Below, one piece after another: positions 1-22,468 of a stretch of DNA of 32,000 nucleotides. The first letter of the stretch is position 1; each line of letters begins with the position of its first letter. The translations under genes and the position numbers were made by a program. Source of the stretch: Edaphobacter aggregans (GTDB lineage Bacteria; Acidobacteriota; Terriglobia; Terriglobales; Acidobacteriaceae); NCBI RefSeq assembly GCF_003945235.1, contig NZ_RSDW01000001.1:2250001-2282000 (forward strand), written 5' to 3'. Under the pieces are notes generated by a model. That model was not told the DNA's origin, did not search any database, and was given only the letters and a program-made list of their open reading frames with translations.

Positions 1-133
1 GAGCCCCGTGAAGCGTTCGAGCAAAGTGACCGTAACTGGGTTGCCAAACCTTCCAAGTTACCTTCCTCATTGGGTCAGGGACTTACGCTGCTGATTAGCT
101 TCATCATCCCTCGCGGGGATTGCTTCGCCGAGT

Positions 134-1189
134 TCAGCGGTAGCTTTCGACTGTTCTTCGGAAACCCTGCTCGATGGAGTGAGCCGGGTTCCAACCGAGG
201 GCTTTGGCTTTGTCGATGTTGGGGACGGTGGAGACGATGGGGCTGACGAAGTAGTTCTGATCGGTGCGTGCGCGGCGTTCGACGGTGATGCCTTCGCTGT
301 GGAATTCAGCGACGAGGCAATCTACTAGCTCTGCGATGCTGCACTCGCCGTTTGGATTGGCTACGTTGTAGGCTTCGCCATTTTTGCCGAGGAGAAGGAC
401 GGTGAAGAAGCCGAGGGTTGCGTCGGCGAGGTAACAGAAGCTGCGGCGGGCGCTGCCGTCGCTTTGGAGAACGATGGGACCGCCTTTGAGGATGTCTCGG
501 ACGAAGTCGGCGAAGACGCGGCCGTCGTCGAGGCGCATGCCGGGGCCATAGGTGTGGAAGGGGCGGACGATGCGCGTAGGGATGCCGTATTGATGAGCCC
601 AGGCGACGCACATGGTCTCGGCCATGCGCTTGCTTTCGCCGTAGCAGGAGCGGACGTCGGTGGGATCGAGGAAGCCGCCGTCGTCTTCGGCGATGGGGCC
701 GCTGTTGCTCTTGATGATGCCATAGACCTCGCCACTGCTGAAGTAGAGGAAGCCGCGGACTGGGTGCTGCCGCGCGGCTTCGAGGAGGTGCCAGATGCCG
801 AGGACGTTTGCGGAGAGGGTGCCTACGGGGTCAGTACGGTAGAAGACGGGACTGGCCTGGCTGGCGGCGTGGATGGCGAAGTCGAAGGGCTCGCGAAAGG
901 TGAGCGGGTCGGAGATATTCTGGACGAGGATTTGGAGGTTAGGGTCGTCGAGGTGATGGCGGAAGCGCTCGCGGGCGCGGTCGAGGTTGCGAACTATAGC
1001 GATTACACGGGCGGGGCGGGCGAGGTGTGAGCGGTTGAGGTAGAGGAGGGTCTCAACCATGTAGGCGGGAAGGAAGCCGGCTGCTCCGGTGATGAGGACG
1101 GTAGTGCCGGAGAACGAATCCCAGGGGAGCGATGCGCTGACGATGGAGGCTAGGTCTTCTTCGACGATTGCATTGTTTAAAGAAGGCAT
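134..1189 (-). CDS. NAD-dependent epimerase/dehydratase, UDP-glucuronate-decarboxylase-like extended SDR
   Basis: ORF 134..1489 trimmed to the internal ATG at 1187-1189 (MPSLNNAIVEE...), 5 nt after the stop of the preceding gene (1195-1197). The 100 codons upstream are R/P-rich and overlap that gene. Motifs: ITGAAGFLPAY (Rossmann), YGESKRMAE (YxxxK), RIVRPFHTYGPGMRLDDGRVFADF resembling UXS/dTDP-glucose-dehydratase-type extended SDRs. Confidence 0.85.
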   Translation of the reverse strand: MPSLNNAIVEEDLASIVSASLPWDSFSGTTVLITGAAGFLPAYMVETLLYLNRSHLARPARVIAIVRNLDRARERFRHHLDDPNLQILVQNISDPLTFREPFDFAIHAASQASPVFYRTDPVGTLSANVLGIWHLLEAARQHPVRGFLYFSSGEVYGIIKSNSGPIAEDDGGFLDPTDVRSCYGESKRMAETMCVAWAHQYGIPTRIVRPFHTYGPGMRLDDGRVFADFVRDILKGGPIVLQSDGSARRSFCYLADATLGFFTVLLLGKNGEAYNVANPNGECSIAELVDCLVAEFHSEGITVERRARTDQNYFVSPIVSTVPNIDKAKALGWNPAHSIEQGFRRTVESYR

Positions 1190-1194
1190 ATTCG

Positions 1195-2169
1195 CTAGGG
1201 GAGCAGGCCGAGGAAACGCACCATCTCGAGATGGCGCTCGGTGTGGAGGAAGAAGAAGTTGGTCTCGACGGTGGTCTCGGTCATCTCGGCGAAGGAGTGC
1301 AGGGTGTTGCCGTCGAGCGCGAAGCACTGGTAGCCGATATCGCGGAAGAGGGCGATGATATCGTTGGGGTGGTAGTCGAAGCGGGCGGCCCACTTGCGGA
1401 GCATTTCGGTGAAGACGATGGGCTTGGCGCGCTCGAGGGTTTTGACGGCTCCGCGGAAGACGCGGAGCTCGCCACCCTCTACGTCGCACTTGATGAAATC
1501 GGGAGAGATGCCGGTGCGGTCGACGAAGGCGTCGAGGGTTTCTACAGGGCAGGTGAGGGTTTGGGTGGGGCCGAACTCTGCGCCGAGAGGGGCTCCAGAT
1601 GCGGCTCCGGAGACGGTGGGGTCGAAGTAGAAGGTGGCTTCGTAAGCGCGATCGGAGAGGCCCTGATTGAGGGCGGTGACGTTGCTGACGCCGTTGAGGG
1701 TGAGGTTGCGCTGCAGCTCGCCGTAGGTTGCGGCGACGGGCTCGAAGGCGATGAGTTTTGAATCGGGGAAGCGCTGGCCGATGGCGATGCTGTAGATGCC
1801 TACGTTGGCGCCGACGTCGAAGATGGTGCTACAGGTCTTGGCGAGACGAAGGACTGCGCCGAGCTCTTCGGATTCGTAGTTGCGGAAGTTGAGGCTGGCG
1901 ATTGCTACGTGGCGCTGATCGTTGGGCATGCACCTGAGCTTGACCCTGGGATCGCGCAGGTTGAAGATGACGCCCTGATCGGTGATTTCGATGGAGGCGA
2001 CGTTGGTGCCGGCGAGGAAGGCGGAGTATTCGAAGAGGCGCTGATGAATCTTCCAGATCTCGCGGCTGTAGGTTGCCTTGTTGAAGGCTCCGGCTTCGAA
2101 TGCGGAACGCAGCGCGGCCAGCTCCAGATGTTGCTCGGATGACAGGGCCGGATCGGGGGATGAATTCAT
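1195..2169 (-). CDS. FkbM-family SAM-dependent methyltransferase
   Basis: 324-aa ORF with ATG at 2167-2169 and GAGGA upstream. The core FDVGANVGIYSIAIGQRFPDSKLIAFEP is typical of the Methyltransf_21/FkbM family, which is common in glycan loci. Confidence 0.85.
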   Translation of the reverse strand: MNSSPDPALSSEQHLELAALRSAFEAGAFNKATYSREIWKIHQRLFEYSAFLAGTNVASIEITDQGVIFNLRDPRVKLRCMPNDQRHVAIASLNFRNYESEELGAVLRLAKTCSTIFDVGANVGIYSIAIGQRFPDSKLIAFEPVAATYGELQRNLTLNGVSNVTALNQGLSDRAYEATFYFDPTVSGAASGAPLGAEFGPTQTLTCPVETLDAFVDRTGISPDFIKCDVEGGELRVFRGAVKTLERAKPIVFTEMLRKWAARFDYHPNDIIALFRDIGYQCFALDGNTLHSFAEMTETTVETNFFFLHTERHLEMVRFLGLLP

Positions 2170-2259
2170 CTTGTGAGATTTCCTCGGATAGTTATACCAC
2201 TCAAAATAGCAGATTGGGGTTGCAGCCGGGCTACTGCAGGATGGGGGGGCTGGGTGGGC

Positions 2260-4038
2260 TTAGGGTTTGGTGAGATAGAGGAAGACCTTGGCAGCGGTGG
2301 CCGGGTCGAGATCGGGGGTCATGAGGTGGAGAGGGTTGGACTCCATGCTGCCGGAGGCCGTGACGCGGCTGCTGATTTTGGGGAAGTAGGTTTGCTCGGG
2401 ATCGATCTTGACGAGGAATGCGGCTGGTCCGGGGGCATTGAAGGCTTCGAGGAAGGCGGGGCATTGTTCGAAGCCGGGACGGAGTTCCTGCAAGGGGATG
2501 CCGTAGGCCTCGAAGAGCTTTGACCAGATGGGCATGCCAAGGCCGGTGTTGATGTCGCAGCCTACGTAACGGCCACCGAAGTAGTTTTTCTGCGTCATGC
2601 GGATGGAGGCGTAACCGTCGTCGTCGTAGAGGAAGATCTTGAGGTTGAGTTGATTGACGGAGACGGTGCCTAGCTCCTGGAGGTTCTGGGTGAAGCCTCC
2701 GTCGCCTTCGGTAAGGATGGTGCGGCGGGGACTTGCGGCGATGGCGGCTCCGATGGCTCCGCTGAGGCCGTAGCCCATGGAGGCGAGGCCTTTGTTGTTG
2801 ACGATGAGCTGACCGGCCTTCTGGTCGAACGCCTGCATCATGGTGGTGTAGGCGCTGCCGCTGGAACAGGGGATTACTACGTCGGTTTCGGTGGCGAGGG
2901 CGGAGAGCTTCTCGACGAAGACATATGGCGAGAGGAAGCCTGGGCCGGTGTTGTTGACGGGCTCGACGAGGGGAAGAGCGGCTTTGACGTCGCGGCAGAA
3001 GCTGAGCCATTCGGTGTGTGAGCCGAGGTCGGCTTTGGTGATGGCGCGGAGGACTTCGTTGGCGTCTCCGCAGATGGGAGTAGCGACTTTGGGGTGGCCC
3101 TTGGAGAGTTCGAAGGGGTCGCAGTCTACCTGGATGATTTCGCCAACCGGGATGAACTGCTGCCAGTTGAAGCCGCTCTGCTGAAGGCTGAGGCGGGTGC
3201 CGAGAGCGAGGAGGAGATCGGACTGCTGGAGGAGGATATTGGAGTAACGCTGGCCCCATGTGTTGGGGCGGCCGAAGTAGAGCGGGTGGTCGACGGGGAT
3301 GCGGTCCATGGCGTTCCAAGTGAACGTGAGGGGAACGCCGAGGTCGGTGAGAGCGCGGCTGGCGAGGAGGGCGTTGGTGGTGGCGCGGTCGATGCCGGCT
3401 CCGAGGAGGATGACGGGGCGCTGGGCGGATTTGAGGCGTGCGGCGATGCTGGCGATGGTTTCGGCGGAGATGGGCGCGAAGGTTGGGGTGAAGGCTGGGA
3501 CGGGGGTACTTAGATCGGTGGGGTCTACCTGGACGCCCTGGATGTCGAGCGGAATCTCCACAAAGACCGGGGCATGGCGGCCGTTAAGACCGGAACGCGT
3601 TATCTGCGCAAAAGCAGAGCGGTCGACGACGGCTTCCAGCAATACGGAACGTTCCGTTACTGGGCCCGCGATAGCAACTCCATTGATCTCCTGAATCCCT
3701 CGCTGGCGGACTTTTCCTCGCGAGAGGTCCGCCAACTTTACCTGGCCGCCGATGACGAGCAACTCGCGACTCTCAAGAAAGGCACCTGCTAGTGCGGTCA
3801 CAATGTTGGTGAGACCAGGGCCGGCGGTCACAAGTGCAAAGGCCTTGGGACCGAGATGCACTTCGTTGAAGTATTCAGCTGCGATGCCGGCCGCAACCTC
3901 ATGCACTACTGGAATGCAAGTCAGCTTGTGGCTCAAGCTTTCGAGCAGATGCATGATGTTGCCACCTGCAACAAAGAAGCAGTGAGTGTAGCCAAGCTCG
4001 ACGAGCCACTCGGCAAGCAAATCGCTGTATTTTTTCAT
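2260..4038 (-). CDS. Thiamine-diphosphate-dependent enzyme, acetolactate-synthase-large-subunit-like (possible YerE-type sugar C-branching enzyme)
   Basis: 592-aa three-domain ORF. N-terminal PYR domain (CFFVAGGNIMHL; VHEVAAGIAAEY with the catalytic Glu). C-terminal ThDP motif GDGGFTQNLQELGTVSVNQLNLKIFLYDDDGY. ATG 4036-4038 overlaps the stop of the upstream gene (ATGA). The family call is firm; the YerE-like role is inferred from context. Confidence 0.85.
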   Translation of the reverse strand: MKKYSDLLAEWLVELGYTHCFFVAGGNIMHLLESLSHKLTCIPVVHEVAAGIAAEYFNEVHLGPKAFALVTAGPGLTNIVTALAGAFLESRELLVIGGQVKLADLSRGKVRQRGIQEINGVAIAGPVTERSVLLEAVVDRSAFAQITRSGLNGRHAPVFVEIPLDIQGVQVDPTDLSTPVPAFTPTFAPISAETIASIAARLKSAQRPVILLGAGIDRATTNALLASRALTDLGVPLTFTWNAMDRIPVDHPLYFGRPNTWGQRYSNILLQQSDLLLALGTRLSLQQSGFNWQQFIPVGEIIQVDCDPFELSKGHPKVATPICGDANEVLRAITKADLGSHTEWLSFCRDVKAALPLVEPVNNTGPGFLSPYVFVEKLSALATETDVVIPCSSGSAYTTMMQAFDQKAGQLIVNNKGLASMGYGLSGAIGAAIAASPRRTILTEGDGGFTQNLQELGTVSVNQLNLKIFLYDDDGYASIRMTQKNYFGGRYVGCDINTGLGMPIWSKLFEAYGIPLQELRPGFEQCPAFLEAFNAPGPAAFLVKIDPEQTYFPKISSRVTASGSMESNPLHLMTPDLDPATAAKVFLYLTKP

Positions 4039-5135
4039 GAAGGGTAACTTTCCAAGACAGTCTTTATGGCGCCTTGGATGCGTAGCATCGACTCCGGCGA
4101 TTTAGGGATCTTCTTAACAATGACCTTGCCGGACGGTTCGACGAGGATCAGCACATAGCTGTCCTGTCTGTGCTTCTTGTCGGATTCGAAGCGCTCCATG
4201 ACATCTTTCAGCTGCAATTCAGCAAGCTGGCTTGAAAGACTTGGCACAACCCGGAAGATGGTGGCCAAATGATCTTCGAGTTCGCGAACTGCGGGTGCTC
4301 CAGCGTATGGATCGGAGCCGTCTTCAGGGCTCTGGCGACCGAACGCGAGAGCGCACAACATCCCCAGGCCCACGGCGATTCCATGCGAGATGCCATAGTT
4401 CGAGGCGCCTTCGATAGCGTGGCCAAAGGTATGCCCGAAGTTAAGGAGTAGACGCTGATTCTGATCGAATTCGTCGATCTCAATGAACCACTTTTTTGCC
4501 CGCAGACTGTGGGCGATAAGCATGGCGAGTGCGGACGTTTCCATCCCCGGGTGCGGGTTGCAGGCGAGATAGCTGCGGAATGACTCCGGGCTATGGCAGA
4601 AGCAGATCTTTGCCGCTTCGATGATGCCACTGGCATGCTGATCTAATGGCAGAGTGCGTGCGAACTTAGGGTCGACGAGGACTCGCAATGGAGGATGAAA
4701 GGTGCCGACGAGATTCTTGTAGCGCCCGACATTGATGGAGGACTTGCCTCCGATGCACGAGTCAACCATTCCGAGGATCGTTGTGGGAATATAAATCCAC
4801 TGCACACCGCGCATGTAGATGGAAGCAGCGAAGGCGGTGAGGTCCTGGATCACGCCGCCGCCGATTGCAACGAATTGAGTTTGCCGGTTGGCTCCAGAGC
4901 GACGGATCTGTTCGATCAGCCCCGGCGCTGAGTCGAGCGATTTAACGGATTCAGACGCATCGTAGTAAATGACCGCACGCGAAGATTCGATCCACGAAGG
5001 AAGAGCGCCTCGGAAGAAGCTGTCTGCGATTATGACAGCCTGCTGATGTTCGTCTATCTGGCGGTCGAAGGCTCCGGGCTCGATATACACAGAATAGCTT
5101 CCTGTGGAAGCGGAGATTTCAAACGATTCGAACAT
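4035..5135 (-). CDS. 3-dehydroquinate synthase family protein (sugar-phosphate-cyclase-like)
   Basis: 366-aa ORF with ATG 5133-5135. Signature set GGGVIQDLTAFAA, PTTILGMVDSCIGGKSSIN, KNLVGTFHPP, NFGHTFGHAIE, HGIAVGLGM, matching the nucleotide/metal-binding motifs of the DHQS superfamily. The start overlaps the upstream SDR gene by 17 nt. Confidence 0.85.
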   Translation of the reverse strand: MFESFEISASTGSYSVYIEPGAFDRQIDEHQQAVIIADSFFRGALPSWIESSRAVIYYDASESVKSLDSAPGLIEQIRRSGANRQTQFVAIGGGVIQDLTAFAASIYMRGVQWIYIPTTILGMVDSCIGGKSSINVGRYKNLVGTFHPPLRVLVDPKFARTLPLDQHASGIIEAAKICFCHSPESFRSYLACNPHPGMETSALAMLIAHSLRAKKWFIEIDEFDQNQRLLLNFGHTFGHAIEGASNYGISHGIAVGLGMLCALAFGRQSPEDGSDPYAGAPAVRELEDHLATIFRVVPSLSSQLAELQLKDVMERFESDKKHRQDSYVLILVEPSGKVIVKKIPKSPESMLRIQGAIKTVLESYPS

Positions 5136-5832
5136 GACTGAACCCCAAGTCGGCAGCGATGAACTGGCCTGTAATACCGGTATTTTCGGGCGAACAGAGA
5201 TAACAGACGAGCGAGGCGACCTCCTGCAAGCTGACGAGGCGATTGTATGCCGTAGCGGCGGAGAGTCGGTCGATCTGTTCCGCGCTAAGATTCTTGCGAG
5301 TCATTGGCGATTCGATTGCGCCGGGTAGCACCGCGTTGATGAGATGACCGTCCTTGGCAAGGTCTGCGGATGCGGAGAGCACAAGACCTTGCAGCGCCGC
5401 TTTGCTCATGCAGTAGGAAAGCTTTGATTGACGCGCGAGGTTCTGCCAGATGGAACTGATAATGCAAAGACGTGAAGCAGTTGCAAGGAAGCCACCTTGA
5501 AGGAGCGCTTGCAAGGTAACGAGGATATAAGTGCAGTTGGCCTCGTATATTTGTCGATGAACTGCCAGGTCAAGATTGTAGACACTGTCGTTCGCGTTGG
5601 TGCCCTGCGCCCAGCAGATGCTGGTGTAAGCGGAAGACGGTGCAATTTGTGAATAGGCAAAGTCCGCACTCAACGGATCGAGAGCAAAATATTCAACTGC
5701 AGGTAGCGGAACTTCAGGTAGCTTGCGTGCAACAGCCGTAACCTTCCAGCCGCGCTGAAGTGCTAACCGAACCACTCCGCCACCGATAACTCCGCTGGCG
5801 CCGAATACTAGGATATGCTCTACCGACTCCAT
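5119..5832 (-). CDS. Classical short-chain dehydrogenase/reductase
   Basis: ORF 5119..5931 trimmed to ATG 5830-5832 ([19 protein letters not shown]...), which overlaps the TAA of the upstream gene by 1 nt (TAATG). GASGVIG glycine motif and SYCMSKAAL (YxxxK). Confidence 0.8.
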   Translation of the reverse strand: MESVEHILVFGASGVIGGGVVRLALQRGWKVTAVARKLPEVPLPAVEYFALDPLSADFAYSQIAPSSAYTSICWAQGTNANDSVYNLDLAVHRQIYEANCTYILVTLQALLQGGFLATASRLCIISSIWQNLARQSKLSYCMSKAALQGLVLSASADLAKDGHLINAVLPGAIESPMTRKNLSAEQIDRLSAATAYNRLVSLQEVASLVCYLCSPENTGITGQFIAADLGFSHVRIV

Positions 5833-6629
5833 TAGCGATTGAGAACCGCCCAGCGTTTCTCGAGCATGTCGATCCGCTTGGCGTCTTCCTGTTGAATCTG
5901 GCTGTAGTAGTCCCGTTTGTTCAGCAACCAAAGCATCTCGAAGTGAACTGCGTTCAGCAGACCTTCACTAATGTGGTTTTCTCTTACGGCGTTCGCGTCG
6001 AAGATGACCTTGCGTGTCTCAAAGCGTGTTAGGTGCACGTCGAGCATCTCGCGAAGTACGGGAATAGAGTCGCTGGAGACGCCCCCCCCGACAACGAGAT
6101 CCAGACCGCGCGACTTGCAGGCGGCTGCCGTCTTCAGAACGTAGTCGGTGACCTCTTTGCCATTAATGGCGTCTCGCCCGAGGCCAGCAGAGAGCGAGAA
6201 GTCGACGCGGCCGAAGACGATACCAGCCAGTTCAGGTGCCTTCTTGGTCGCATCGGCCATAGCCTCAAGTTGACTGTAGGCAGAGATCGTCTCAAGGTTG
6301 AAAAGAAAGTCGGTCTCCTCTTGCTCCTCTTTCGAGTAGACCTTGTCCACTGCATCGGCGAATTTAGTGAGAGCGTAGGTGCTTTCGATCATTGGCGCGA
6401 TGATGTAATCGACGCCGAACTGCTTACTTTCGATGAGGTCGCGCATCGCCTCGCAGCCACCGATCTTGAGCCCGAACTTCAGGCTGGCCTTGCGACAGAT
6501 CTCAACGAGCCGAAGCAGTTCATCGACGCGGGTGCCTTCGGCCTCAAACTCCGCTTTGACGGCTACATAACCAAATTCGTCTCTGCCCTTTTTGAGGAGG
6601 TCCAGCATCTTGCGTTCTTTGATGTTCAT
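5832..6629 (-). CDS. HpcH/HpaI-type aldolase / citrate-lyase-beta-like TIM-barrel protein
   Basis: 265-aa ORF with ATG 6627-6629 preceded by [21 protein letters not shown] and [14 protein letters not shown]...[16 protein letters not shown] resemble the conserved strands of the HpcH/HpaI, CitE and PEP-utilising (beta/alpha)8 family. The assignment rests on remembered motifs only. Confidence 0.6.
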
Positions 6630-6735
6630 TCACTTTCCTTGGCGAGTCTTATAGAAACACGGTCAATTTTAGCAGCGATGAAGTCTACTTTGGACTGTAA
6701 GCGGAGAAGCGGTCAACTGCTTCAGGTGCAATGCC

Positions 6736-8136
6736 TTAGAGAACAATCAGGTCACCCCTGACTATCGTGTGGAAAGAATCGATAATATAGTCGATCATGT
6801 TTTCGGTTAGACCAGGGTAAACACCGATCCAGAACACATTGTTCATCACATAATCCGTATTGGGTAACTCCCCAATCTTGCGATACTTCGAATTCAGATA
6901 AGCCGGCTGACGCAAAAGGTTGCCACCGAACAGTAGCCGTGTTCCGATCTTCCGTTGATCCAAGGCTCGCACGACACGGTCACGTTTCAGTCCCCCTTCG
7001 GGCTTCACCGCAATGGGAAAGCCAAACCAACTGGGATCAGAGCCCGGCGTGGCCTGAGGCAAGGAAAAGAACTCCTCCAGATCTGCAAGGCCATCATAAA
7101 GACGTTTGAAGTTCGCCCTTCGCGCCGCGATGAAGCCCGACAACTTCCTCAACTGAGACACACCAACCGCCGCCTGCATGTCGGAAAGCTTCAGGTTGTA
7201 GCCAATGTGCGAATAGATGTACTTGTGATCGTACCCGCATGGTAGTTCACCGAGTTGCCACTCGAATCGCTTGCCGCAGGTGTTGTCCCTTCCCGGAGCG
7301 CACCAGCAGTCGCGGCCCCAGTCTCGGAACGATTCTATCAGTTTGGTCAACGCAGGCTTCTGTGTCATCACAGCACCACCCTCGCCCATCGTAATGTGGT
7401 GCGCAGGATAAAAGCTCGCAGTAGAGATATCGCCAAACGTTCCCACGCCCTGACCTTTGTAGGTAGCGCCCACCGCATCGCAGCAGTCTTCCACCAGCCA
7501 GAGATCGTGCCTCTTGCAGAAAGCCATCACTGCGTCAAGGTCAAAGGGATTGCCCAGCGTGTGCGCAATCATCACTGCGCGGGTTTGATCAGACACAGCT
7601 GCCTCAAGCTGGGAGTAGTCAATGTCATAAGTATCCAGCTGAACGTCAACGAACACAGGGACTAAGTTGTTCTGAATCGCCGGATTGATAGTCGTAGGAA
7701 AACCCGCCGCAACAGTAATAACCTCATCACCAGGCCGGAGCGCGCGGTCACCCAGACTAGGAGATGTGAGCGCAGAGAGCGCCACAAGATTCGCCGACGA
7801 ACCTGAGTTGACCAGACGAGCATCGCGGACACCCATCGCTCGTGCGAACTGGCGTTCAAATTGCTCCGCGAAACGGCCCGTTGTTAACCAGAAGTCTAGC
7901 GAGGCATCCACAACGTACTGGATGTCTTCGGCATCGAATACCTTGCCGGAGACAGGAACTGCAGACACGCCTGGGGTGAACTTGCGGGTTGGAAACGCTA
8001 CATCGTGGTACTTGGTCACCAGGTCGCGAATCTGATCGCGCAAAACCTCAGCCTGTAGCTCCCGCTCGGCGATCGCACCACCTTCTTCGCTCAGGCTAAG
8101 GCTGCCCGCTCGATTTTCAGCGATCGATTCCATCAT
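6736..8136 (-). CDS. rfbH: CDP-6-deoxy-L-threo-D-glycero-4-hexulose-3-dehydrase (E1; RfbH/DdhC)
   Basis: 466-aa DegT/DnrJ/EryC1-fold ORF (ATGATG at 8131-8136, overlapping the rfbG TAA by 1 nt). E1-specific features: [12 protein letters not shown], with His where aminotransferases carry the PLP lysine, and the Cys pattern EDCC-x57-CWC-x7-C. I counted the latter by hand, and it matches the C-x57-C-x1-C-x7-C [2Fe-2S] motif described for E1. Confidence 0.93.
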
Positions 8137-9257
8137 TAGCTCCTATTCGAAATCGGCAGGTCATATTTGGAGAGCCGTTGATAGGCAGCAATCTGATCGA
8201 GGGTGATCTGCTGCATGTCACTTCCGGCCTGCCACTGCTTGAACCATTCTACGATGAACTGCAGCGCGCCGGAGAGGGCAAGCGCTGGTCGCCAACCTAG
8301 CAGATTATGCGCGCGCGCGCAGTCTAGTTTCAGATAGGTGGCCTCATGGGGATGAACACCCTCATCAATAGCCCAGGACGCATCAGGCGACCACTGCTTC
8401 GCCAACTCACGCACAATCCATTCTACCGGCCGTGCGTCCTCCTCATCTGGGCCAAAGTTCCAGGCAGATGTAAAGCTTGCGTCGTGCGCAAGAAGCCGCT
8501 CCGCAAGCTGAATATAGCCACGGACAGGCTCCAGTACGTGCTGCCACGGGCGGATCGCATGAGGATTGCGAATCGCAACCTGTTCGCCAGCGATGAAACC
8601 GCGCATCAGGTCGGGAATTAACCGATCCACTGCCCAGTCTCCCCCGCCGATCACGTTGCCCGCGCGAGCGGTGGCGACAGCAACTCCGTGGACGCCAAGC
8701 TTGTCCGGCGGAAAGAACGAATCGCGATAAGCCGCACTCACCAATTCAGCGCACGCCTTGCTGTTGCTATATGGATCATGCCCACCCAGCCGGTCATTCT
8801 CACGATAACCCCACTGCCACTCGCGATTCTGGTAACACTTGTCCGTCGTTATCAGAACTGCCGCCTTCACCGATGCTGTATGCCGAATGCTGTCGAGCAC
8901 ATTCACTGTGCCCATCACATTCGTCGCATACGTCAATACCGGCTCAGCATACGAGCGTCGCACCAACGACTGCGCGGCAAGATGAAAAACGACATCAGGC
9001 GCGAACTCCTGCATGGCTGCTCGCAGGCGTGGCAACTCACAAATGTCAGCCTCGATATGGTGTACGCACTCACTAATACGAGCGACCTCAAAGAGATTAG
9101 GGTCGCTCGGGGGTGCCAGCGAATACCCACACACAGTGGCTCCCATCTGCGTCAGCCACAGCGCCATCCAGCTGCCCTTGAACCCAGTATGCCCTGTAAG
9201 AAATACCCGGCGTCCTCTCCAGGGAGAATCAAGCCCGAGGCTCACCACTTCCTCCAT
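8136..9257 (-). CDS. rfbG: CDP-glucose 4,6-dehydratase
   Basis: ORF 8136..9395 trimmed to ATG 9255-9257 ([35 protein letters not shown]...), the typical N-terminus of this family. The extra 46 codons lie inside rfb[10 protein letters not shown] (YxxxK). 16-nt overlap with the end of rfbF. Confidence 0.9.
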
Positions 9258-10012
9258 GGCGCCGCACCACTTTGCCACAGCTCTTCCAGTTGCGTCTTGT
9301 CGCGAAGAGTATCCATCGGCTGCCAAAAGCCTCTGTGTGGATACGCCTTCAGGTTCCCTTCTTCCGCCAGCCGTTCGAGCGGCTCTCTTTCCCATAGGGT
9401 CTGGTCGCCCTTGATATAGTCAATCACCTTGGACGAAAGAACAAAGAACCCTCCATTGACCGAGACTCCGTCGCCAACCGGCTTCTCACGAAATTCAGTA
9501 ACTTGGTCACCATCGATCAATAGTGAACCCCAACGGCCGCTGGGCTGCACTGCACATATGGTCGCTAACTTTCCATGGAGCCTGTGAAACTCGATGGATT
9601 TCACCACATCGATATCCGCAAGCCCGTCGCCGTACGTAAGACAGAAAGTATCTTCCCCAGCTAGATATTTTGCCACGCGTTTTAGCCGGCCACCGGTCTG
9701 TGTCGTATCGCCTGTGTCAACAAGCGTTACGCGCCAGGGTTCCGTCGCGCTGTCATGGACTTCCATACGGTTCTCTTCCATATGGAACGTGACATCCGCT
9801 GTATGCAGGAAGTAGTTGGCGAAAAATTCTTTGATGACATAGCCCTTATAACCCAGACATATTACAAAGTCATTGATACCAAAATGAGAATAGATCTTGA
9901 GGATGTGCCACAAGATGGGCTTCCCGCCGATCTCAACCATCGGCTTTGGGCGAACTGAGGTCTCTTCACTGATCCGAGTGCCCAATCCACCTGCGAGAAT
10001 GACAGCTTTCAT
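9242..10012 (-). CDS. rfbF: Glucose-1-phosphate cytidylyltransferase
   Basis: 256-aa ORF with ATG 10010-10012. MKAVILAGGLGTRISEETSVRPKPMVEIGGKPILWHILKIYSHFG is a near-canonical RfbF/DdhA N-terminus. Confidence 0.93.
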   Translation of the reverse strand: MKAVILAGGLGTRISEETSVRPKPMVEIGGKPILWHILKIYSHFGINDFVICLGYKGYVIKEFFANYFLHTADVTFHMEENRMEVHDSATEPWRVTLVDTGDTTQTGGRLKRVAKYLAGEDTFCLTYGDGLADIDVVKSIEFHRLHGKLATICAVQPSGRWGSLLIDGDQVTEFREKPVGDGVSVNGGFFVLSSKVIDYIKGDQTLWEREPLERLAEEGNLKAYPHRGFWQPMDTLRDKTQLEELWQSGAAPWRKW

Positions 10013-10016
10013 TTAC

Positions 10017-11474
10017 TTAGCTCTCCGGCGATAGCGTCATATCGCATGCAGGTTTTACGTTCCACAGCATCGGCTGCATCTGCATGGATCGCTTCGCAAA
10101 TTCAAGATTTGCAGCGACTACACATATTATAGTCAAGTGGAGCCAGACGTATGGACGCAGGATATTTTGATTAAGCTGCAATATCAGCCATCCATAAGTC
10201 ATCGCCCGACAGAGAGCAAGTAACATCTGCCCGAATGCATCCTTCCTAAACAATTTACCCAATTTTCTGGGAAATACCGTCGTCTGATACAGAAAAATCA
10301 AAAACGGAATGATACCGATCAACCCACTTGAAGCTAAAACTTCAGCGAAGACGCTCAGTCCCTCGTATTCCTTCGATTCCTCCATGGTCTGTGGATGAAA
10401 TCCATGAAGTGCGGCAATACTCGGTGAAACTCCTCCCAAACTGCGTCCGATAAATGGGTTTTCACGAAACACTTGAAGCGTGTCAGAAAATGCCCCTGCT
10501 CGGTCATCAACAGAGTGTGCTGTTGTTCCCTGCAAGCCAGTGCCGCTTAGAAGAAACAGGAGGTTATAATCCCGCAGAATCATATCGATGCGAGGAATGA
10601 CCATAAACATCAGAATTCCAAGTGGAAATACAAGCAATTGCCATCGATTGACCCTCCACTTTCCTACGGAAAGCCGCTTGAGTTGTAACAGGAGGGCAGA
10701 GGAGACGACTGGAATAATGCGAAGTGCGGCCTCTAACGACATGAATAGCCATGCGGTGCGGCTTGACGATAGCACGAGAGCAATTGTTTCAATGGCAAAA
10801 ATAACCTTCCATGTACTGGAAGAAAACCCTTCCACTCTCGCTATAAGTAAATGAAGAAGGGTCACCCATCCCAATAGCATGTAAGTGGCAAAATAAGATG
10901 GCTCATATGAGAATCCATTGATTCTCGCAAGATGCGGAAGCCAGAACTGAGTAACCAGGAAAGCCGGAAGTCCGGTGAGTGGAGCTACAAACTGATATAG
11001 TCCAAAAACGGCTATCGCTCCGAAGCTACCCACATAAAACCGCACGAGTGAATAGGTATATCCGCTACGGTAGTAGAGTTGAACGACACATGCTAACGCT
11101 ACTATGTTGTACCAAAGCCATATATTGTACGTAACTCCTTTAATGAGAAAGGAGCTAAAGGGTAAGAAGAGCGTCTGAACTATTCCCCAAACCACAAGTG
11201 CTGGAAAGCCAATCGGCGATATGAAACGCAGCTTCTGCTGCATGACGATCATGCCGCCAAAACATACAACCAGGAGAGCTACTTGGGAGGCGCGCACGGT
11301 CCCACCAACATTTACTACTAGCGCCAGATCGAATGAGGATGTAAGCAGAGAAAAACAAAAAAGAAAATGAAAGATCTGCATCGAAATTGACCGCGGACCT
11401 ACTGGGATTACAGGGACCAGTAGTGCTTTTTCGGCCCCAGTATAACGATCTCGGGTCTTGCGAAGTATTGGCAT
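10017..11474 (-). CDS. O-antigen polymerase/ligase-family (Wzy_C-type) integral membrane protein
   Basis: The ORF-track start at 11528 is a TTG that overlaps the PCP gene. The first ATG (11472-11474, MPILRKTRDRY...) has AGGAGAG upstream, so the start is uncertain. There are many hydrophobic spans and an SSSRTAWLFMSLEAA loop motif typical of the O-antigen ligase/polymerase domain. The gene is markedly AT-rich (hand count 22/60 GC for 10261-10320). Confidence 0.7.
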   Translation of the reverse strand: MPILRKTRDRYTGAEKALLVPVIPVGPRSISMQIFHFLFCFSLLTSSFDLALVVNVGGTVRASQVALLVVCFGGMIVMQQKLRFISPIGFPALVVWGIVQTLFLPFSSFLIKGVTYNIWLWYNIVALACVVQLYYRSGYTYSLVRFYVGSFGAIAVFGLYQFVAPLTGLPAFLVTQFWLPHLARINGFSYEPSYFATYMLLGWVTLLHLLIARVEGFSSSTWKVIFAIETIALVLSSSRTAWLFMSLEAALRIIPVVSSALLLQLKRLSVGKWRVNRWQLLVFPLGILMFMVIPRIDMILRDYNLLFLLSGTGLQGTTAHSVDDRAGAFSDTLQVFRENPFIGRSLGGVSPSIAALHGFHPQTMEESKEYEGLSVFAEVLASSGLIGIIPFLIFLYQTTVFPRKLGKLFRKDAFGQMLLALCRAMTYGWLILQLNQNILRPYVWLHLTIICVVAANLEFAKRSMQMQPMLWNVKPACDMTLSPES

Positions 11475-11514
11475 TTTCTGGGCAATCTCTCCTGCTGAGA
11501 GTAGCTGCAACTTA

Positions 11515-12780
11515 TTAGTTGCCACCAAATTTACCGCCTAGCCTCGCTGCTTCGAACACCGCTTTCAATTTCGCCTCGCTCTCCGCATTTAAGCTCATTC
11601 CCCGCACCGTTTCGCGGACAACCACCCAGATTATTCCGACCATTCCCCCAACCAAAGCGGCGAATATGGTCATCAGGGTCCGCCCTAGTCCGGCCTTGGT
11701 GTCTGGCACAACAGCATAATCCACCTCTTGCATCAACGGCGCGGAACGAGCTTCATCCAACTTGGCAGTTTCATACTGTCGAAGCAGTAACTCGTAAAGC
11801 GCCTCATGGTACTTCACATCGCGAGCCTTGCGAACATAGATCAGTTCTAGCTCGGGCACCTTTGACGTTGGTACCTGCGGATTTCCAACAGCACCCTTCG
11901 CGCTTGAGTTCTCCAGTCTGTTTAGCTGCGCCTTCAACGCCTCAATTTCTGAGCGAATACGGACTACTTCGGGATTCTGGCTTGTTGCGCCCTGACTCAG
12001 CGCCTCCAATTGAACTTCGCGGTTCGTAATCTGCGCCTGCGTTTCGGCAATCGTCTGAAGCTGAATTTGTGCCTGCCCCGAAGGATGAATAAGTCCGCTC
12101 TGTTCCTCCGTGCGCTTCAGCTCGACCTCCGCATCCGCCAGCGAATTCTTCTCTTTCTCCAGTTGTTGCTCGAAGAAGCGCCGCCTTTGACCAGCTTCTG
12201 TAAACGCAATCCTGTCATTCTGCTTGTGCAGCGCGGCAAGGTAGGCGTTCGCTAGGTCTGCAGCTCGTTTCGGATCACCATCCTCTACGTTGATGACGAC
12301 AATCGTGTCTTTGCCCGAGAATATCTTCGTATGTGACTTCAGAACCTTCTCTGTCTGACTTAGCTTCTTGGTCTTGTACACCTTCGCCAGATCGAATTGG
12401 TGGATCAAATCGTCAGCAACCGTGCGGCTTTCCAAAATCCCCACATAAATCAGAGTTGGGTCCTTGAGCCCGCTCAACGCACTTCCCGCCGACCCCAGAG
12501 CACCAAGTTGCCCGAGCAGTGCAGAGGACCCCCCTGTGGACATCGAGTTCGGCGGTAAAAAGGTTGCCTGCGCTTGATAGTAGGGCTTCTTGATCAGCAA
12601 AACGATAGCGGTAATGACTGCTGTCACCAACGCAAACTTCAAGATCAGGATCTTGTTTTGCAGCAGAATTCTGACCAGTTCCAATAGATCGATCTCTTGT
12701 TCTTCCGGTTCTCTCGTCGATTCGACGCGAGCGGAAGTCTCGGGATGATTCAATACCGTCTCTTCATGCATAGTTCTCAT
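11515..12780 (-). CDS. Polysaccharide co-polymerase (Wzz/GumC-type chain-length determinant), no kinase domain
   Basis: ORF 11515..12831 trimmed to ATG 12778-12780, 1 nt after the OPX stop (12782-12784). N-terminal Wzz-type segment with a TM helix (EIDLLELVRILLQNKILILKFALVTAVITAIVLLI), a long coiled-coil-like middle (FFEQQLEKEKNSLADAEVELKRTEE...) and a C-terminal TM helix (LMTIFAALVGGMVGIIWVVV). No Walker A motif seen. Confidence 0.8.
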   Translation of the reverse strand: MRTMHEETVLNHPETSARVESTREPEEQEIDLLELVRILLQNKILILKFALVTAVITAIVLLIKKPYYQAQATFLPPNSMSTGGSSALLGQLGALGSAGSALSGLKDPTLIYVGILESRTVADDLIHQFDLAKVYKTKKLSQTEKVLKSHTKIFSGKDTIVVINVEDGDPKRAADLANAYLAALHKQNDRIAFTEAGQRRRFFEQQLEKEKNSLADAEVELKRTEEQSGLIHPSGQAQIQLQTIAETQAQITNREVQLEALSQGATSQNPEVVRIRSEIEALKAQLNRLENSSAKGAVGNPQVPTSKVPELELIYVRKARDVKYHEALYELLLRQYETAKLDEARSAPLMQEVDYAVVPDTKAGLGRTLMTIFAALVGGMVGIIWVVVRETVRGMSLNAESEAKLKAVFEAARLGGKFGGN

Positions 12781-12781
12781 T

Positions 12782-15541
12782 TCAAAAAAGCGTGTTGGTT
12801 GCTGCGATCGCGATTCCAAACTGGCCAACAATCTGCGCGATATCTACAAGTAGTCGCATTCCCTTGCCCTTATCCAGGTTCATCGGGATCACAACCGTAT
12901 CCCCAGGATAAAGCCGCAGAGAGTCGAATCCATTGCCACGCAGCAGCGACGAGCTGTATTGCCTGCTGACCACCGAGCCTCCAGCGCGAATAACGTAGGC
13001 ACGGTTCGCGTCCGCATCGCGGTTCGCTCCACCGGCCAATCGCACATAATCGCCTACGCGGCGGCGCGGATCGTATAAAAACGTATTCTGATTGTAGACC
13101 GCACCATCTACACTTACAGTCGAAGGCACCCGGGGCACGATAAACCGGTCTCCATCTTCCAGCGGAAGATCAGGCAACGCGGACACATCGCGGCTATCCG
13201 GCGGCATTTCCAGAACGATGCGCCCCGTGGCCCGTGCCTGGCGCAAGCTATTGACGATGTTTTGGTTCTGCTGAGCGGCAGCGGACGCCGCAGCAGTATC
13301 CTGAGCGCTGATCGAACGATTCGCGTTGCCCGCTGCATTCGCGCTGGCCTGCAGCGAGATCTGGTCGACATACTCATTCAGCCGCTGCTGCTGCACGCGG
13401 CGCGTCGACTCGCGCGTAAACTCCGATCCATAGAGATAAGCCTCAGGCGTCAAACCTCCAGCTCGTTGCACCAACTGCCGTAGCGTCTCACCTGGCTTCA
13501 CGCTGTAAACGCCAGATCCGACAAACTCTCCCTCCAGCCGCACCAGCCGCGTTTGCTCCGCCTGGGGCACGTGAATGTCGGCCTTTGAAAAGATCGTCAC
13601 CACATCACCCGGCTCCAACTCCAGGTTTTGCGAAACGTCCCCTTGCATCACGACCTTACCCAGATTGAACGGTAGCAGTGTTGTGGTTAGATCCTCTTTA
13701 CCCTGTCGCTCGATGACTGCGTAGCTCCAATTGATATCCGGTTCACTCAATTTCACATCAAATCGAGCCCGAAATTGCGTCGAGGAAGCGCCCACGCTCG
13801 CCTCAGCCGTACTTACACGATTCGAACCAGCGGTATTCTGGGGCAACTGCAGCAGGTTCTGAGTTGTTGCAGTAGGGTTGGTTGTTCCCTGCGCCGGCAC
13901 CGTTCCCTGCGACTGCGACTGCGCCTGCGCCGACGGTGTATATCGATCATTCATTCCGCTTGCAGATGTCTGGGACTCATTTGGTGTCCCGCAGTCCGGT
14001 CCACCGTCGGTCGTCGGACCGTCCGTCATTTGACTTGAACTACCCTCAGAATTCCCGAAAGGCAGGCCAAACAGATTTGGATTTCTTGTCGACGAATATC
14101 TCCAGTTAGGATTATCCCCTTCCTCTCCCACTGGAATTCCGTACCGGAGGCTGGGAATGCCAAAGGGCGTCCTTGGTGGGCACGTTGGAATAAAGGTCAG
14201 CCCAGGCTGGCCCAGTTGTGCGCGCTTCAGCCAGTAGTCGCGGGTAATCAGCGCATCCTTATCGGGAATCAGGTCCTTGACGCGCATTCCCGGCTTCCAC
14301 GTGTAGCGTCCAGGATTCGCCACGTTTCCTCGCAACGTAACCGCATCCTTATACTGGTTGGGAATCGCAATCATTGACAGAATGTCGCCATCCTGCAGGA
14401 CCGTCGCCTTACCCTTGGCATCGATCCCAAGCTCAAGAAAACTGCGACCGCGCCCCTCGCTTACACGCTCCAGCCGAATCTTCTCGCTCGCGGCCACATT
14501 CGTCAAGCCGCCTGCCAGTTCAATCATCTCCCCTACGGTCGTGCTGTCGGCAGACTTCAACTCATAGATTGCAGGCTCGTTCACGCTGCCGGTCAACGCC
14601 ACCTGTGGCCCCACAGATGGAATAAAGATGACGTCGCCGGGAAGCAGTTGCACGTCCTTCGACTTGTCTCCGTGAAGCAGCAAATCGTACAAATCGAAAT
14701 CGACGATGACCTGGCCGCTCCGCTTCAGTTGGATGTGGCGCACACTACCCTGGGGCGTCGGGCCGCCGGTCACAAAGAGCGCATTCACCAGCGTGCTCAA
14801 CGAGCTGATCGTATAGTTTCCCGGACGCCGCGCCTGTCCCACCACAAATACCTGGATCGAACGCAACTGCCCCATGTTCACGTTCAGGTCGAAATTTCGG
14901 AAGACTCTACTTATCTGCGTCTTCAGACTGTCCTGCAACTGCATGAATTTCAGGCCTGCCACATGCAACGTGCCTACCTGCGGGATGTAGACGTTGCCCA
15001 TCCGGTCCACCATGAAGCGCCCGTTAAGCGTGACCTGCCCCCATAACTGCACCTGCAACTCGTCACCCGGACCAACTACATAATCGGGGGTCACCGGCAC
15101 CATGTTCAGTGGCGCAAAGGTTGAAGGCGGATTGCGGAAGAGCTTCGCGCCATAGATCGGCAGCATCTTCCCTGTCGCATTGGCGACCATGTTCTGAAAT
15201 TCAGTCGGCGAATCCAGGGGAAGTTTGGGCTCAACAGTGGTCAGATTCTGACCCTGCTGCTGCTGATTGCCCGTCTGCGCGTTCGTATTGTTCTGATTCG
15301 TCTGATCAGATTGCAGCACGATCCCCTGAGAGGGAGTAACCGGGATATTCCCTTGCAATGGAATACGTGTCTGATCTACGCTCTGGCAACCAGAATCGGT
15401 CGGATTACAGGCCTGCTGTTGCTGGCCACCAGTTCCACCAAGCACCTGAGATATCTGTGCCGATACCCTGCTCGCTCCGAGCACGGTAACCAAAACAACG
15501 CATCCAACCTGAACTACTCTGAGCGAGCCACCAAACTGCAT
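12782..15541 (-). CDS. Outer-membrane polysaccharide export protein (OPX/Wza-like, multi-SLBB), unusually large
   Basis: The ORF-track start at 15559 is TTG. The first ATG is 15539-15541 (MQFGGSLRVVQVGCVVLVTVLGASRVSAQ, signal-peptide-like). The PDYVVGPGDELQVQLWGQ Poly_export motif is followed by repeated SLBB-like PGD/DGD turns (LLPGDVIFIP, LQDGDILSM, LEPGDVVTIF, LEDGDRFIVP, LYPGDTVVIP). Confidence 0.85.
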   Translation of the reverse strand: MQFGGSLRVVQVGCVVLVTVLGASRVSAQISQVLGGTGGQQQQACNPTDSGCQSVDQTRIPLQGNIPVTPSQGIVLQSDQTNQNNTNAQTGNQQQQGQNLTTVEPKLPLDSPTEFQNMVANATGKMLPIYGAKLFRNPPSTFAPLNMVPVTPDYVVGPGDELQVQLWGQVTLNGRFMVDRMGNVYIPQVGTLHVAGLKFMQLQDSLKTQISRVFRNFDLNVNMGQLRSIQVFVVGQARRPGNYTISSLSTLVNALFVTGGPTPQGSVRHIQLKRSGQVIVDFDLYDLLLHGDKSKDVQLLPGDVIFIPSVGPQVALTGSVNEPAIYELKSADSTTVGEMIELAGGLTNVAASEKIRLERVSEGRGRSFLELGIDAKGKATVLQDGDILSMIAIPNQYKDAVTLRGNVANPGRYTWKPGMRVKDLIPDKDALITRDYWLKRAQLGQPGLTFIPTCPPRTPFGIPSLRYGIPVGEEGDNPNWRYSSTRNPNLFGLPFGNSEGSSSQMTDGPTTDGGPDCGTPNESQTSASGMNDRYTPSAQAQSQSQGTVPAQGTTNPTATTQNLLQLPQNTAGSNRVSTAEASVGASSTQFRARFDVKLSEPDINWSYAVIERQGKEDLTTTLLPFNLGKVVMQGDVSQNLELEPGDVVTIFSKADIHVPQAEQTRLVRLEGEFVGSGVYSVKPGETLRQLVQRAGGLTPEAYLYGSEFTRESTRRVQQQRLNEYVDQISLQASANAAGNANRSISAQDTAAASAAAQQNQNIVNSLRQARATGRIVLEMPPDSRDVSALPDLPLEDGDRFIVPRVPSTVSVDGAVYNQNTFLYDPRRRVGDYVRLAGGANRDADANRAYVIRAGGSVVSRQYSSSLLRGNGFDSLRLYPGDTVVIPMNLDKGKGMRLLVDIAQIVGQFGIAIAATNTLF
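13907..13930. repeat. Hexanucleotide tandem repeat (ctgcga x2, ctgcgc x2) inside the OPX low-complexity insert
   Basis: Read directly as ctgcgactgcgactgcgcctgcgc. It encodes AQAQSQSQ on the minus strand and stays in frame. Confidence 0.7.
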
Positions 15542-15573
15542 CTTCCGTAATCCTCGCAAAACCTCTAAACTTC

Positions 15574-19074: not shown

Positions 19075-19105
19075 CCATACTCCTAATTCTTTTACAACAC
19101 TTGGT

Positions 19106-20796: not shown

Positions 20797-20998
20797 GGAT
20801 TGCCATATTTTTTTATCTCTGGTAAAGCCCTGTTTTTGTTGAGCTTTCTGGGAAAATTGAGCGTAGGATGTGGTGGTTTATGGACAGCTAGCGGTCAAAA
20901 GCGTGGCAAAGGTGGTAACTGGACGCACGCTTTTCTGGGCCGAGATGGTGTCCGCGCTCTTTTCCACAGCCTTGACAGGGCCGTGTCGGGGAGTACCT

Positions 20999-21439: not shown

Positions 21440-21497
21440 TTCCTCTTGTTTCTGTGGCCAAACAGGCGAGAGCCCCTCGTAATCTGGCCGGTATTTC

Positions 21498-21660: not shown

Positions 21661-21668
21661 GGATCTTG

Positions 21669-22250: not shown

Positions 22251-22298
22251 GAGGATATTGTCTCGTGTGTGGGGTTGGGTGGGGTGCTGAAAAGTGGT

Positions 22299-22440: not shown

Positions 22441-22468
22441 TTTCAGGTCCTCTACACCATCAGCGAAA

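Follow-up and report, generated by a model that had tools for sequence, protein, structure and literature searches.

The window analyzed here is a stretch of 32,000 nucleotides (nt) from Edaphobacter aggregans (contig NZ_RSDW01000001.1 of assembly GCF_003945235.1, positions 2,250,001 to 2,282,000), and all coordinates below are window positions. Between 134 and 10012 it contains nine open reading frames (ORFs), all on the minus strand and all intact, in frame, and without internal stops, which form the candidate branched-sugar operon that is the subject of this work. From the upstream end these are rfbF, rfbG, and rfbH, followed by genes for an HpcH-like aldolase, a classical short-chain dehydrogenase/reductase (SDR), a protein related to 3-dehydroquinate synthase (DHQS), a thiamine diphosphate (ThDP) carboligase, an FkbM-family methyltransferase, and an extended SDR. 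Overlaps join rfbF to rfbG (16 nt, 9242 to 9257), rfbG to rfbH (1 nt in TAATG at 8136), the aldolase gene to the SDR gene (again 1 nt in TAATG, at 5832), the SDR gene to the DHQS-like gene (17 nt, 5119 to 5135), and the DHQS-like gene to the ThDP gene (4 nt in ATGA, 4035 to 4038), and 5 nt (1190 to 1194) separate the last two genes. Longer gaps lie between rfbH and the aldolase gene (106 nt, 6630 to 6735) and between the ThDP and FkbM genes (90 nt, 2170 to 2259); a scan of both found no sigma-70-like promoters or terminator-like sites above background. The inner ATG starts at 9257, 5832, and 1189 are backed by homologs over the longest-ORF starts. The 1-, 17-, and 4-nt overlaps within the block from 2260 to 6629 are unchanged in related loci from other genomes (L001, L002, L003/L004, and L086), whose proteins are only 56 to 84% identical. 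Because the same overlaps recur in homologous loci, the gene packing is conserved and is neither chance nor an artifact of ORF calling. The first-pass annotation had described nine packed genes on the minus strand, and every junction that it listed is present in the sequence.

The upstream three genes encode enzymes of the pathway to CDP-4-keto-3,6-dideoxyglucose. RfbF (DdhA; 9242 to 10012, minus strand), a glucose-1-phosphate cytidylyltransferase with a Pfam NTP_transferase domain, matches the TIGR02623 equivalog model over residues 1 to 256 of 256 at 455.7 bits (cut-off, 300.25). RfbG (DdhB; 8136 to 9257, minus strand) matches the TIGR02622 equivalog for CDP-glucose 4,6-dehydratase at 497.9 bits (cut-off, 278.45). 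RfbH (DdhC, or E1; 6736 to 8136, minus strand), the pyridoxamine phosphate and [2Fe-2S] CDP-6-deoxy-4-hexulose 3-dehydrase, reaches 743.8 bits against NF011936 RfbH (cut-off, 423) and aligns end to end with the Yersinia pseudotuberculosis E1 (PDB 3BCX) at 607 bits. It keeps the FYPAHHIT motif, in which His replaces the Schiff-base Lys, and the Cys cluster, both aligned with the Yersinia enzyme. Judged by sequence, the three proteins are bona fide members of their families, and the earlier DdhA, DdhB, and DdhC assignments are upheld, as all lie above curated equivalog cut-offs by wide margins.

The ThDP gene (2260 to 4038, minus strand) encodes a protein of 592 amino acids (aa) with TPP_N, TPP_M, and TPP_C domains. 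The protein falls far under every acetolactate synthase (ALS) equivalog cut-off; even the best ALS model gives 242 bits where 870 are required. The solved enzyme that it matches best is JanthE (PDB 8RPH, 290 bits), which has been described as a YerE-like, ketone-accepting carboligase; Escherichia coli acetohydroxyacid synthase I scores 205 bits, and PpYerE (5AHK) is a weaker match at 166 bits. These matches place the enzyme in the YerE-like group, in agreement with the earlier YerE-type reading of what had been called an ALS-like enzyme. It is predicted to attach an acyl branch at C4 of a CDP-4-keto sugar, and it shares its operon with the genes for a CDP-4-keto-deoxy sugar acceptor.

The aldolase gene (5832 to 6629, minus strand) encodes a 265-aa HpcH/HpaI-like protein that matches Pfam HpcH_HpaI (PF03328) at 30.7 bits, just over the gathering cut-off of 25, and over residues 65 to 179 only. 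An AlphaFold2 model (pLDDT, 89) is a TIM barrel, for which the best-matching folds are HpaI, HpcH, and SbnG at template-modeling scores of 0.56 to 0.64 and 10 to 15% identity. A sequence search of the PDB gave no match better than an E value of 0.03. On sequence and model, the protein is a marginal, remote HpcH/HpaI member from a separate family whose proteins are about 265 aa long and which comprises 245 clusters (50% identity) at E values of 1e-30 or better. Invariant or near-invariant in this family are K55, E82, E113, R141, and D143.

The DHQS-like gene (4035 to 5135, minus strand) encodes a 366-aa AroB-related enzyme of the NAD- and metal-dependent type with Pfam DHQ_synthase and DHQS_C domains. 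TIGR04425, a putative sugar phosphate phospholyase (cyclizing), scores it at 277 bits and is the top model for all nine DHQS-like proteins scored (269 to 325 bits), every one of them under the cut-off of 400. Against the aroB model TIGR01357 it scores 246.5 bits, also under the cut-off (305), and eight homologs from other loci score 228 to 255 bits. Among 61 cluster-associated homologs, the positions that correspond to the ligands for metal, phosphate, and carboxylate in DHQS show no or almost no variation; in the numbering of the Aspergillus nidulans enzyme, they are R130, D146, K152, N162, E194, K197, K250, R264, N268, H271, H275, H287, and K356. All 61 proteins carry the motif GGGxxQD, with the Gln at Q97 of the window protein, and that Gln is Gly, Ser, or Thr in the aligned AroB enzymes of known structure, so that the motif is a possible diagnostic signature of the clade. 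The coupled classical SDR (5119 to 5832, minus strand; Pfam adh_short_C2, 81.6 bits) carries a YxxxK motif (YCMSK) and a glycine-rich GASGVIGG motif.

To place these genes in context, one genome per species was scanned with the aldolase family, represented by an alignment of 15 sequences. The scan yielded 541 relatives, of which the best 80 loci were kept; Mycobacterium marinum, Rhodopseudomonas palustris CGA009, and Trinickia (Burkholderia) caryophylli lie outside these 80. All loci were searched with the window proteins by tblastn, and counts were taken from 55 loci with at least 4.5 kb on either side of the aldolase gene, 3 of which had first been fetched through the DHQS-like protein. The best 80 of the 541 include loci from Acidobacteriaceae (Edaphobacter, Granulicella, and Terriglobus, at 79 to 90% identity), from alpha-, beta-, and gammaproteobacteria (among them Pararobbsia silviterrae, Bradyrhizobium canariense, Pseudomonas sp. 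286, Thiomonas, and Methylomonas), from Actinomycetota (among them Mycobacterium ahvazicum and Mycobacterium bohemicum), and from further phyla. A ThDP gene lies within 6 kb of the aldolase gene in 51 of the 55 loci, and rfbF, rfbG, or rfbH lies within 10 kb in 44. The aldolase, SDR, DHQS-like, and ThDP genes are a conserved module tied to rfbF, rfbG, and rfbH in several phyla. The first-pass annotation had named, as evidence that would speak against its reading, homologs of the 2260 to 6629 block lying mainly outside nucleotide-sugar contexts, and the survey found the opposite in those same 44 loci. Its description of the aldolase and DHQS-like protein as a noncanonical set has to be given up, since the same block order recurs across phyla and the M. 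marinum caryophyllose locus carries the same set.

The survey also revealed an alternation. The SDR and DHQS-like genes occur together in 42 of the 55 loci and never apart. Forty-one loci have this pair only, 10 have only a gene for a haloacid dehalogenase (HAD) phosphatase within 3 kb of the aldolase gene, 1 has both, and 3 have neither. Seven Acidobacteriaceae loci (L005, L006, L007, L011, L017, L020, and L031) lack the pair and have the HAD phosphatase gene (for example, L006:10798-11493) directly between the aldolase and ThDP genes. Their aldolases are 81 to 90% identical to that of the window in six loci and 72% identical in L031, which is also the range seen among DHQS-type loci. In L006, RfbF, RfbG, RfbH, and the aldolase are 90 to 91% identical to their window counterparts, whereas the ThDP enzyme is only 68% identical, and in a neighbor-joining tree the ThDP enzymes form two clades, HAD type and DHQS type. 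Because the HAD phosphatase stands in for the SDR and DHQS-like pair beside a near-identical aldolase, the branch precursor is probably a sugar phosphate, with the phosphate carried by either the aldolase product or the aldehyde that the aldolase uses. The extended SDR is retained in both locus types, whereas the small SDR is missing from the HAD-type loci, which associates the small SDR with the DHQS-like step. As far as the literature searched goes, this alternation is new. Separately, a second, deeply separated ThDP clade, 32 to 34% identical to the window enzyme, occurs in proteobacterial loci L040, L046, L049, L073, L076, and L079, with the ThDP gene placed after an extended SDR gene in L040, L049, and L073; the aldolase, SDR, and DHQS-like module thus pairs with two ThDP lineages.

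The FkbM-family S-adenosylmethionine (SAM) methyltransferase (1195 to 2169, minus strand; TIGR01444, 101 bits; Pfam Methyltransf_21, 67.9 bits) has no convincing homolog at the same position in any related locus by tblastn with the window proteins. The closest locus, L021, has an Acyl_transf_3 gene where the window has FkbM, and other related loci bear different methyltransferases. The protein provides an accessory tailoring step, probably O-methylation. An O-methylated product is plausible because in R. palustris the sugar related to that of M. marinum bears a 3-O-methyl group, and the putative cluster for it includes a methyltransferase. The extended SDR (134 to 1189, minus strand; Pfam Epimerase, 140.6 bits) has the NAD-dependent epimerase/dehydratase fold and is 78% identical to its L021 counterpart. 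Its best PDB match is the UDP-xylose synthase UXS1 (146 bits), and the first-pass annotation had called it UXS-like. A role as UDP-xylose synthase was rejected: the protein is a full-length homolog (32% identity) of the extended SDR whose gene lies downstream of the ThDP gene in L001-type loci and in most Acidobacteriaceae relatives, and no uronic-acid pathway is present. It is most simply a YerF-type ketoreductase rather than a decarboxylase, and by position and analogy we propose that it reduces the branch carbonyl.

A unifying scheme for long acyl-branched sugars has an aldolase make a functionalized 2-oxo acid, which a YerE-like ThDP enzyme adds to CDP-4-keto-3,6-dideoxyglucose before a reductase acts (PMC9306805). 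The gene set of that scheme (ddhABC-type genes, a YerE-like ThDP enzyme, an aldolase, and an NAD(P)H reductase) lies entirely within the window operon. The same set is found in the M. marinum caryophyllose locus, where mutants that have lost MMAR_2331 or MMAR_2332 no longer add caryophyllose (PMC9306805, PMC5706390). According to the supplementary table of PMC12395582, from which the M. marinum gene content was taken, MMAR_2336 encodes a CDP-glucose 4,6-dehydratase, MMAR_2335 RfbH, MMAR_2334 a cytidylyltransferase, MMAR_2333 a family 2 glycosyltransferase (GT2), MMAR_2332 the ThDP protein, and MMAR_2331 an aldolase/citrate lyase, and the locus (MMAR_2329 to MMAR_2336) includes a "3-dehydroquinate synthase family protein." The loci of M. 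bohemicum and M. ahvazicum, with rfbG, rfbH, rfbF, GT2, ThDP, HpcH, SDR, DHQS-like, and FGGY kinase genes, are syntenic with that of M. marinum because their order matches the annotated MMAR_2336 to MMAR_2329. Since its content matches that of M. marinum and of these syntenic loci, the window core is a caryophyllose-type set, DHQS-like gene included. The locus therefore probably makes a CDP-activated caryophyllose-type sugar, a 3,6-dideoxyhexose with a long, polyhydroxylated, acyl-derived branch at C4. A chain-extended, methylated product like erwiniose or caryophyllose was among those put forward in the first-pass annotation, and the match of the gene set to the unifying scheme and to MMAR_2329 to MMAR_2336 bears this out.

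In the route that we propose, RfbF, RfbG, RfbH, and an unlinked E3-type reductase would produce CDP-4-keto-3,6-dideoxyglucose. The aldolase would join pyruvate or phosphoenolpyruvate (PEP) to an aldose phosphate, for which erythrose 4-phosphate is the likeliest candidate, giving a 3-deoxy-2-ulosonate phosphate similar to 3-deoxy-D-arabino-heptulosonate 7-phosphate (DAHP). The C6 branch of caryophyllose corresponds to a C7 3,7-dideoxy-2-ulosonate minus CO2, and hence to a DAHP skeleton such as pyruvate or PEP and erythrose 4-phosphate would yield. The phosphate would have to go before ThDP coupling, either by HAD hydrolysis, leaving a terminal OH, or by elimination and ketoreduction, leaving a terminal CH3. 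For the latter, the DHQS-like enzyme would perform the opening half of the DHQS reaction, in which NAD transiently oxidizes the substrate, phosphate leaves by beta-elimination, and re-reduction follows, and the coupled SDR would reduce the omega-1 ketone to give a 3,omega-dideoxy-2-ulosonate. The ThDP enzyme, adapted to the resulting donor (hydroxy or deoxy), would decarboxylate the dideoxy-ulosonate and couple the acyl anion to the CDP sugar at its C4 ketone, after which the extended SDR would reduce the new branch carbonyl in the manner of YerF and FkbM would methylate one hydroxyl. This route fits caryophyllose because its terminal deoxy group matches the outcome of elimination and reduction. 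We tentatively put forward, with slightly less than even confidence, that the DHQS-like protein and SDR constitute an undescribed phosphate-eliminating deoxygenation module, in which the reaction stops after beta-elimination and the SDR traps the open-chain 6-ketone to form a 3,7-dideoxyheptulosonate donor, with a HAD phosphatase as the interchangeable alternative that would lead to omega-hydroxy branches.

The order of these steps could be different. The pair might act before the aldol reaction, converting erythrose 4-phosphate to a 4-deoxytetrose (2,3-dihydroxybutanal) that the aldolase would then condense with pyruvate, and the product would be the same. The chemistry of elimination and reduction can be drawn for a tetrose phosphate, the exchange of the pair for a HAD phosphatase is equally compatible with early dephosphorylation, and a free deoxy-aldehyde has been proposed as the aldolase acceptor (PMC9306805). 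We still consider this order unlikely: DHQS-type catalysis acts on a pyranose with an exocyclic CH2-O-phosphate, a ring that a tetrose cannot form, and the DHQS ligand equivalents are kept, including an Arg/Lys pair, which argues for an ulosonate substrate. In the DHQS structure that pair binds the C1 carboxylate, and it is replaced in carboxylate-free cyclases. Given the near-complete conservation of the ligand equivalents among the cluster-associated homologs, an ulosonate phosphate substrate, and hence aldol addition first and dephosphorylation second, is favored. The same conserved catalytic set could also be read as that of a true cyclase, the nearest curated model being itself a cyclizing phospholyase. 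A dehydroquinate-like ring would then be the ketone acceptor of the ThDP enzyme, as YerE-like enzymes take cyclic ketones in vitro, or the phosphorylated side chain would be cyclized after attachment, leading to a carbocyclic sugar of the caryose or bradyrhizose kind. This seems quite improbable, in that the M. marinum locus with the same gene set yields caryophyllose, whose chain is open and terminally deoxygenated; substitution by a HAD phosphatase makes sense if phosphate is to be removed but not if a ring is to be formed; a product of the dehydroquinate type, being an alpha-hydroxy acid, cannot serve as a ThDP donor; and the tight link to rfbF, rfbG, and rfbH points to a CDP-keto sugar as the acceptor. 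The caryose-like option of the first-pass annotation accordingly found no positive evidence and fits poorly with acyclic caryophyllose.

A further reading has the locus make either ordinary yersiniose, whose C2 branch derives from pyruvate, or a 3,6-dideoxyhexose without a branch; the genes for the HpcH-like protein, the SDR, and the DHQS-like protein would then be merely colocated and serve, for example, an aromatic or aminocyclitol pathway. YerE itself uses pyruvate, and JanthE takes it among other donors. Yet conserved 1-, 17-, and 4-nt overlaps couple the translation of these three genes to that of the ThDP gene, the pair and the ThDP gene accompany the aldolase gene at the frequencies given above (42 and 51 of 55 loci), the ThDP clades follow the type of dephosphorylating enzyme, and caryophyllose is lost in the MMAR_2331 aldolase mutant, all of which make this reading highly improbable.

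Several points weigh against the caryophyllose-type route as proposed here. The aldolase substrate in the published scheme is a non-phosphorylated deoxy-aldehyde (PMC9306805), the mycobacterial loci include an FGGY kinase that the window does not have, and the branch may be C5, C6, or C7 in length. No published role for DHQS-family proteins in caryophyllose or other branched sugars was found in the open-access literature, and no biochemistry on any member of the DHQS-like or SDR clades was found in the searchable literature. The DHQS enol intermediate cyclizes readily, so a noncyclizing outcome needs rapid capture by the SDR. The residue roles and A. nidulans numbering used above follow the literature on structure 1DQS, with a constant offset that is compatible with the alignment ranges. 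Finally, the DdhD (E3) reductase that the first-pass annotation had taken as given is not encoded in the window: a motif-only search of the window and 84 related loci found no ORF combining a plant-type ferredoxin Cys motif with ferredoxin-NADP reductase (FNR) motifs, and there is no FNR-like product among window ORFs of at least 150 aa. Because E1 requires such a partner, the E3-type reductase must be encoded elsewhere or be replaced by a general reductase.

The nine genes are real, but the earlier view of them as a nine-gene unit probably falls short at both ends. Upstream, an ORF for a 503-aa multipass membrane protein without a Pfam match (10017 to 11528, minus strand) ends 4 nt before rfbF and overlaps a Wzz/GNVR chain-length gene (11515 to 12831, minus strand), which itself overlaps a gene for a Wza-like SLBB export protein (12782 to 15559, minus strand), the latter two identified by Pfam matches. 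These three export or polymerization genes (10017 to 15559) are probably part of the operon. The membrane protein may be a Wzy-type polymerase, a protein resembling O-antigen ligases, or a transferase of the GT-C type. Downstream, the final gene stops at 134 and so leaves 133 nt before the window ends. L021, L086, and L001 served as proxies for the sequence beyond that edge. Among the closest relatives, the extended SDR gene is trailed by a GtrA-like gene, a GT2 gene, or both, and for these reasons the operon probably extends beyond the left edge of the window. GT2, GtrA, and large unannotated membrane proteins adjoin many cassettes, and M. marinum has a GT87 gene, which together suggest, as speculation, transfer through a polyprenyl-phosphate-linked sugar. 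Proteins of 467 to 697 aa without a Pfam match are encoded beside GT2 genes downstream of the cassette in L001 (15363 to 16880, minus strand, where GtrA is also present), L086 (15052 to 17145), and L006 (15292 to 16695); these may be periplasmic transferases for a lipid-linked branched sugar.

Base composition changes abruptly near position 4000. The ThDP, FkbM, and extended SDR genes (1 to 4000) have a GC content of 0.60 to 0.61 and a plus-strand GC skew of +0.22 to +0.30, and the DHQS-like, SDR, and HpcH genes (4000 to 7000) have a GC content of 0.53 to 0.55 and a skew of about 0. This break and the uneven identity along the operon (in L006, about 90% for RfbF, RfbG, RfbH, and the HpcH-like aldolase and 68% for the ThDP enzyme) suggest an operon put together by recombination as a mosaic of modules. 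In the GC-rich part, long ORFs of 188 to 362 aa, rich in Arg and Pro or in Gly, Ala, Glu, and Asp, overlap operon genes in other frames or on the opposite strand (for example, 2231 to 3319 on the minus strand and 464 to 1030 and 1168 to 1761 on the plus strand). They look like shadow ORFs and were not accepted as genes. Rfam and tRNA scans of the window gave no matches.

Elsewhere in the window, the polysaccharide locus is interrupted by a gene for a housekeeping-looking amidase, GatA-like by eye (15761 to 17275, minus strand), which lies between the Wza-like exporter gene and genes for a glycosyltransferase and an initiating transferase (17929 to 19885). The region from 20224 to 26675 includes rmlC, rmlD, rmlA, and rmlB along with a GmhB-like HAD gene. 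The product of 27067 to 28353 (minus strand) has a Neprosin domain (Pfam, 192.7 bits) and also matches the neprosin activation peptide. Glutamic peptidases of this family are familiar chiefly from plants; the protein here is bacterial.

Caryophyllose, erwiniose, gastriose, and other sugars with long acyl branches are rare determinants of the cell surface that have immunological effects, and clusters for them have been described for few organisms. The caryophyllose-type module is common in soil Acidobacteriaceae and is spread over several phyla. The alternation of a HAD phosphatase with the DHQS-like and SDR pair offers a testable mechanism for the origin of the deoxygenated polyol side chain. 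If the proposal is correct, the deoxygenation module explains the terminal deoxy group of caryophyllose, and branch structures become predictable from sequence in hundreds of uncultured soil bacteria. Culturable carriers include P. silviterrae, B. canariense, Pseudomonas sp. 286, M. bohemicum, and M. marinum. ThDP enzymes are sought as biocatalysts for tertiary alcohols, which makes a map from clade to donor of practical use.

Among the closest known systems, the M. marinum caryophyllose locus resembles the window in core gene content, sharing a cytidylyltransferase, a CDP-glucose dehydratase, RfbH, an HpcH-family aldolase, a DHQS-family protein, and a ThDP protein. As in the window, the small SDR gene of M. 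bohemicum and M. ahvazicum lies between the aldolase and DHQS-like genes. The mycobacterial proteins are 58 to 60% (aldolase, in the position of MMAR_2331), 50% (ThDP), and 59 to 60% (RfbH) identical to those of the window, and the DHQS-like protein and SDR only about 30 to 40%. Unlike in the window, the ThDP gene precedes the aldolase gene, and GT87 and the FGGY kinase are additional. The window, in turn, has the FkbM methyltransferase and extended SDR and belongs to a locus for polysaccharide export of the Wza/Wzz type, not to one for a glycolipid. Genes for FGGY-family carbohydrate kinases stand right after the DHQS-like gene in the mycobacterial loci L080 (12680 to 13957) and L067 (12619 to 13935). 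The mycobacterial kinase may supply a phosphorylated aldehyde or acid where erythrose 4-phosphate is not drawn on.

The yersiniose A pathway of Y. pseudotuberculosis (DdhA to DdhD, YerE, and YerF) likewise runs through CDP-4-keto-3,6-dideoxyglucose as the acceptor and uses a ThDP flavoenzyme-type carboligase followed by a nucleotide-sugar reductase. It differs in its C2 branch from pyruvate, which needs no aldolase, DHQS-like protein, or small SDR, and in that DdhD is encoded within the cluster. The erwiniose cluster of Pectobacterium atrosepticum (ErwE, ErwF, ErwI, and ErwJ) shares the sequence of an aldolase-made 4-hydroxy-2-oxo acid, YerE-like addition, and reduction, but ErwI is of the BphI type rather than HpcH-like and is paired with an acetaldehyde dehydrogenase, and the branch is C4. 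The putative cluster of R. palustris CGA009 for its branched sugar follows the same logic; like the window, it includes a SAM methyltransferase, and its sugar is O-methylated (PMC9306805).

With AroB and the sugar phosphate cyclase superfamily, the window DHQS-like protein shares the fold, the domains, and the metal, NAD, phosphate, and carboxylate ligand positions. It departs from AroB in scoring below both the aroB and TIGR04425 cut-offs and in the invariant Gln in what is otherwise a GGGxxGD loop; its family is always accompanied by the small SDR, in nucleotide-sugar loci, and its predicted reaction would be deoxygenation without ring closure. Kdo-8-phosphate synthase with KdsC and DAHP synthase with DHQS each join a C3 unit to an aldose phosphate and then lose the phosphate, through a HAD phosphatase in the one case and DHQS-type elimination in the other. 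The two solutions to phosphate removal that these systems represent alternate in the loci described here, where, unlike in the KdsA and AroG systems, the condensing enzyme is an HpcH-like TIM barrel and the product would pass to a ThDP carboligase.

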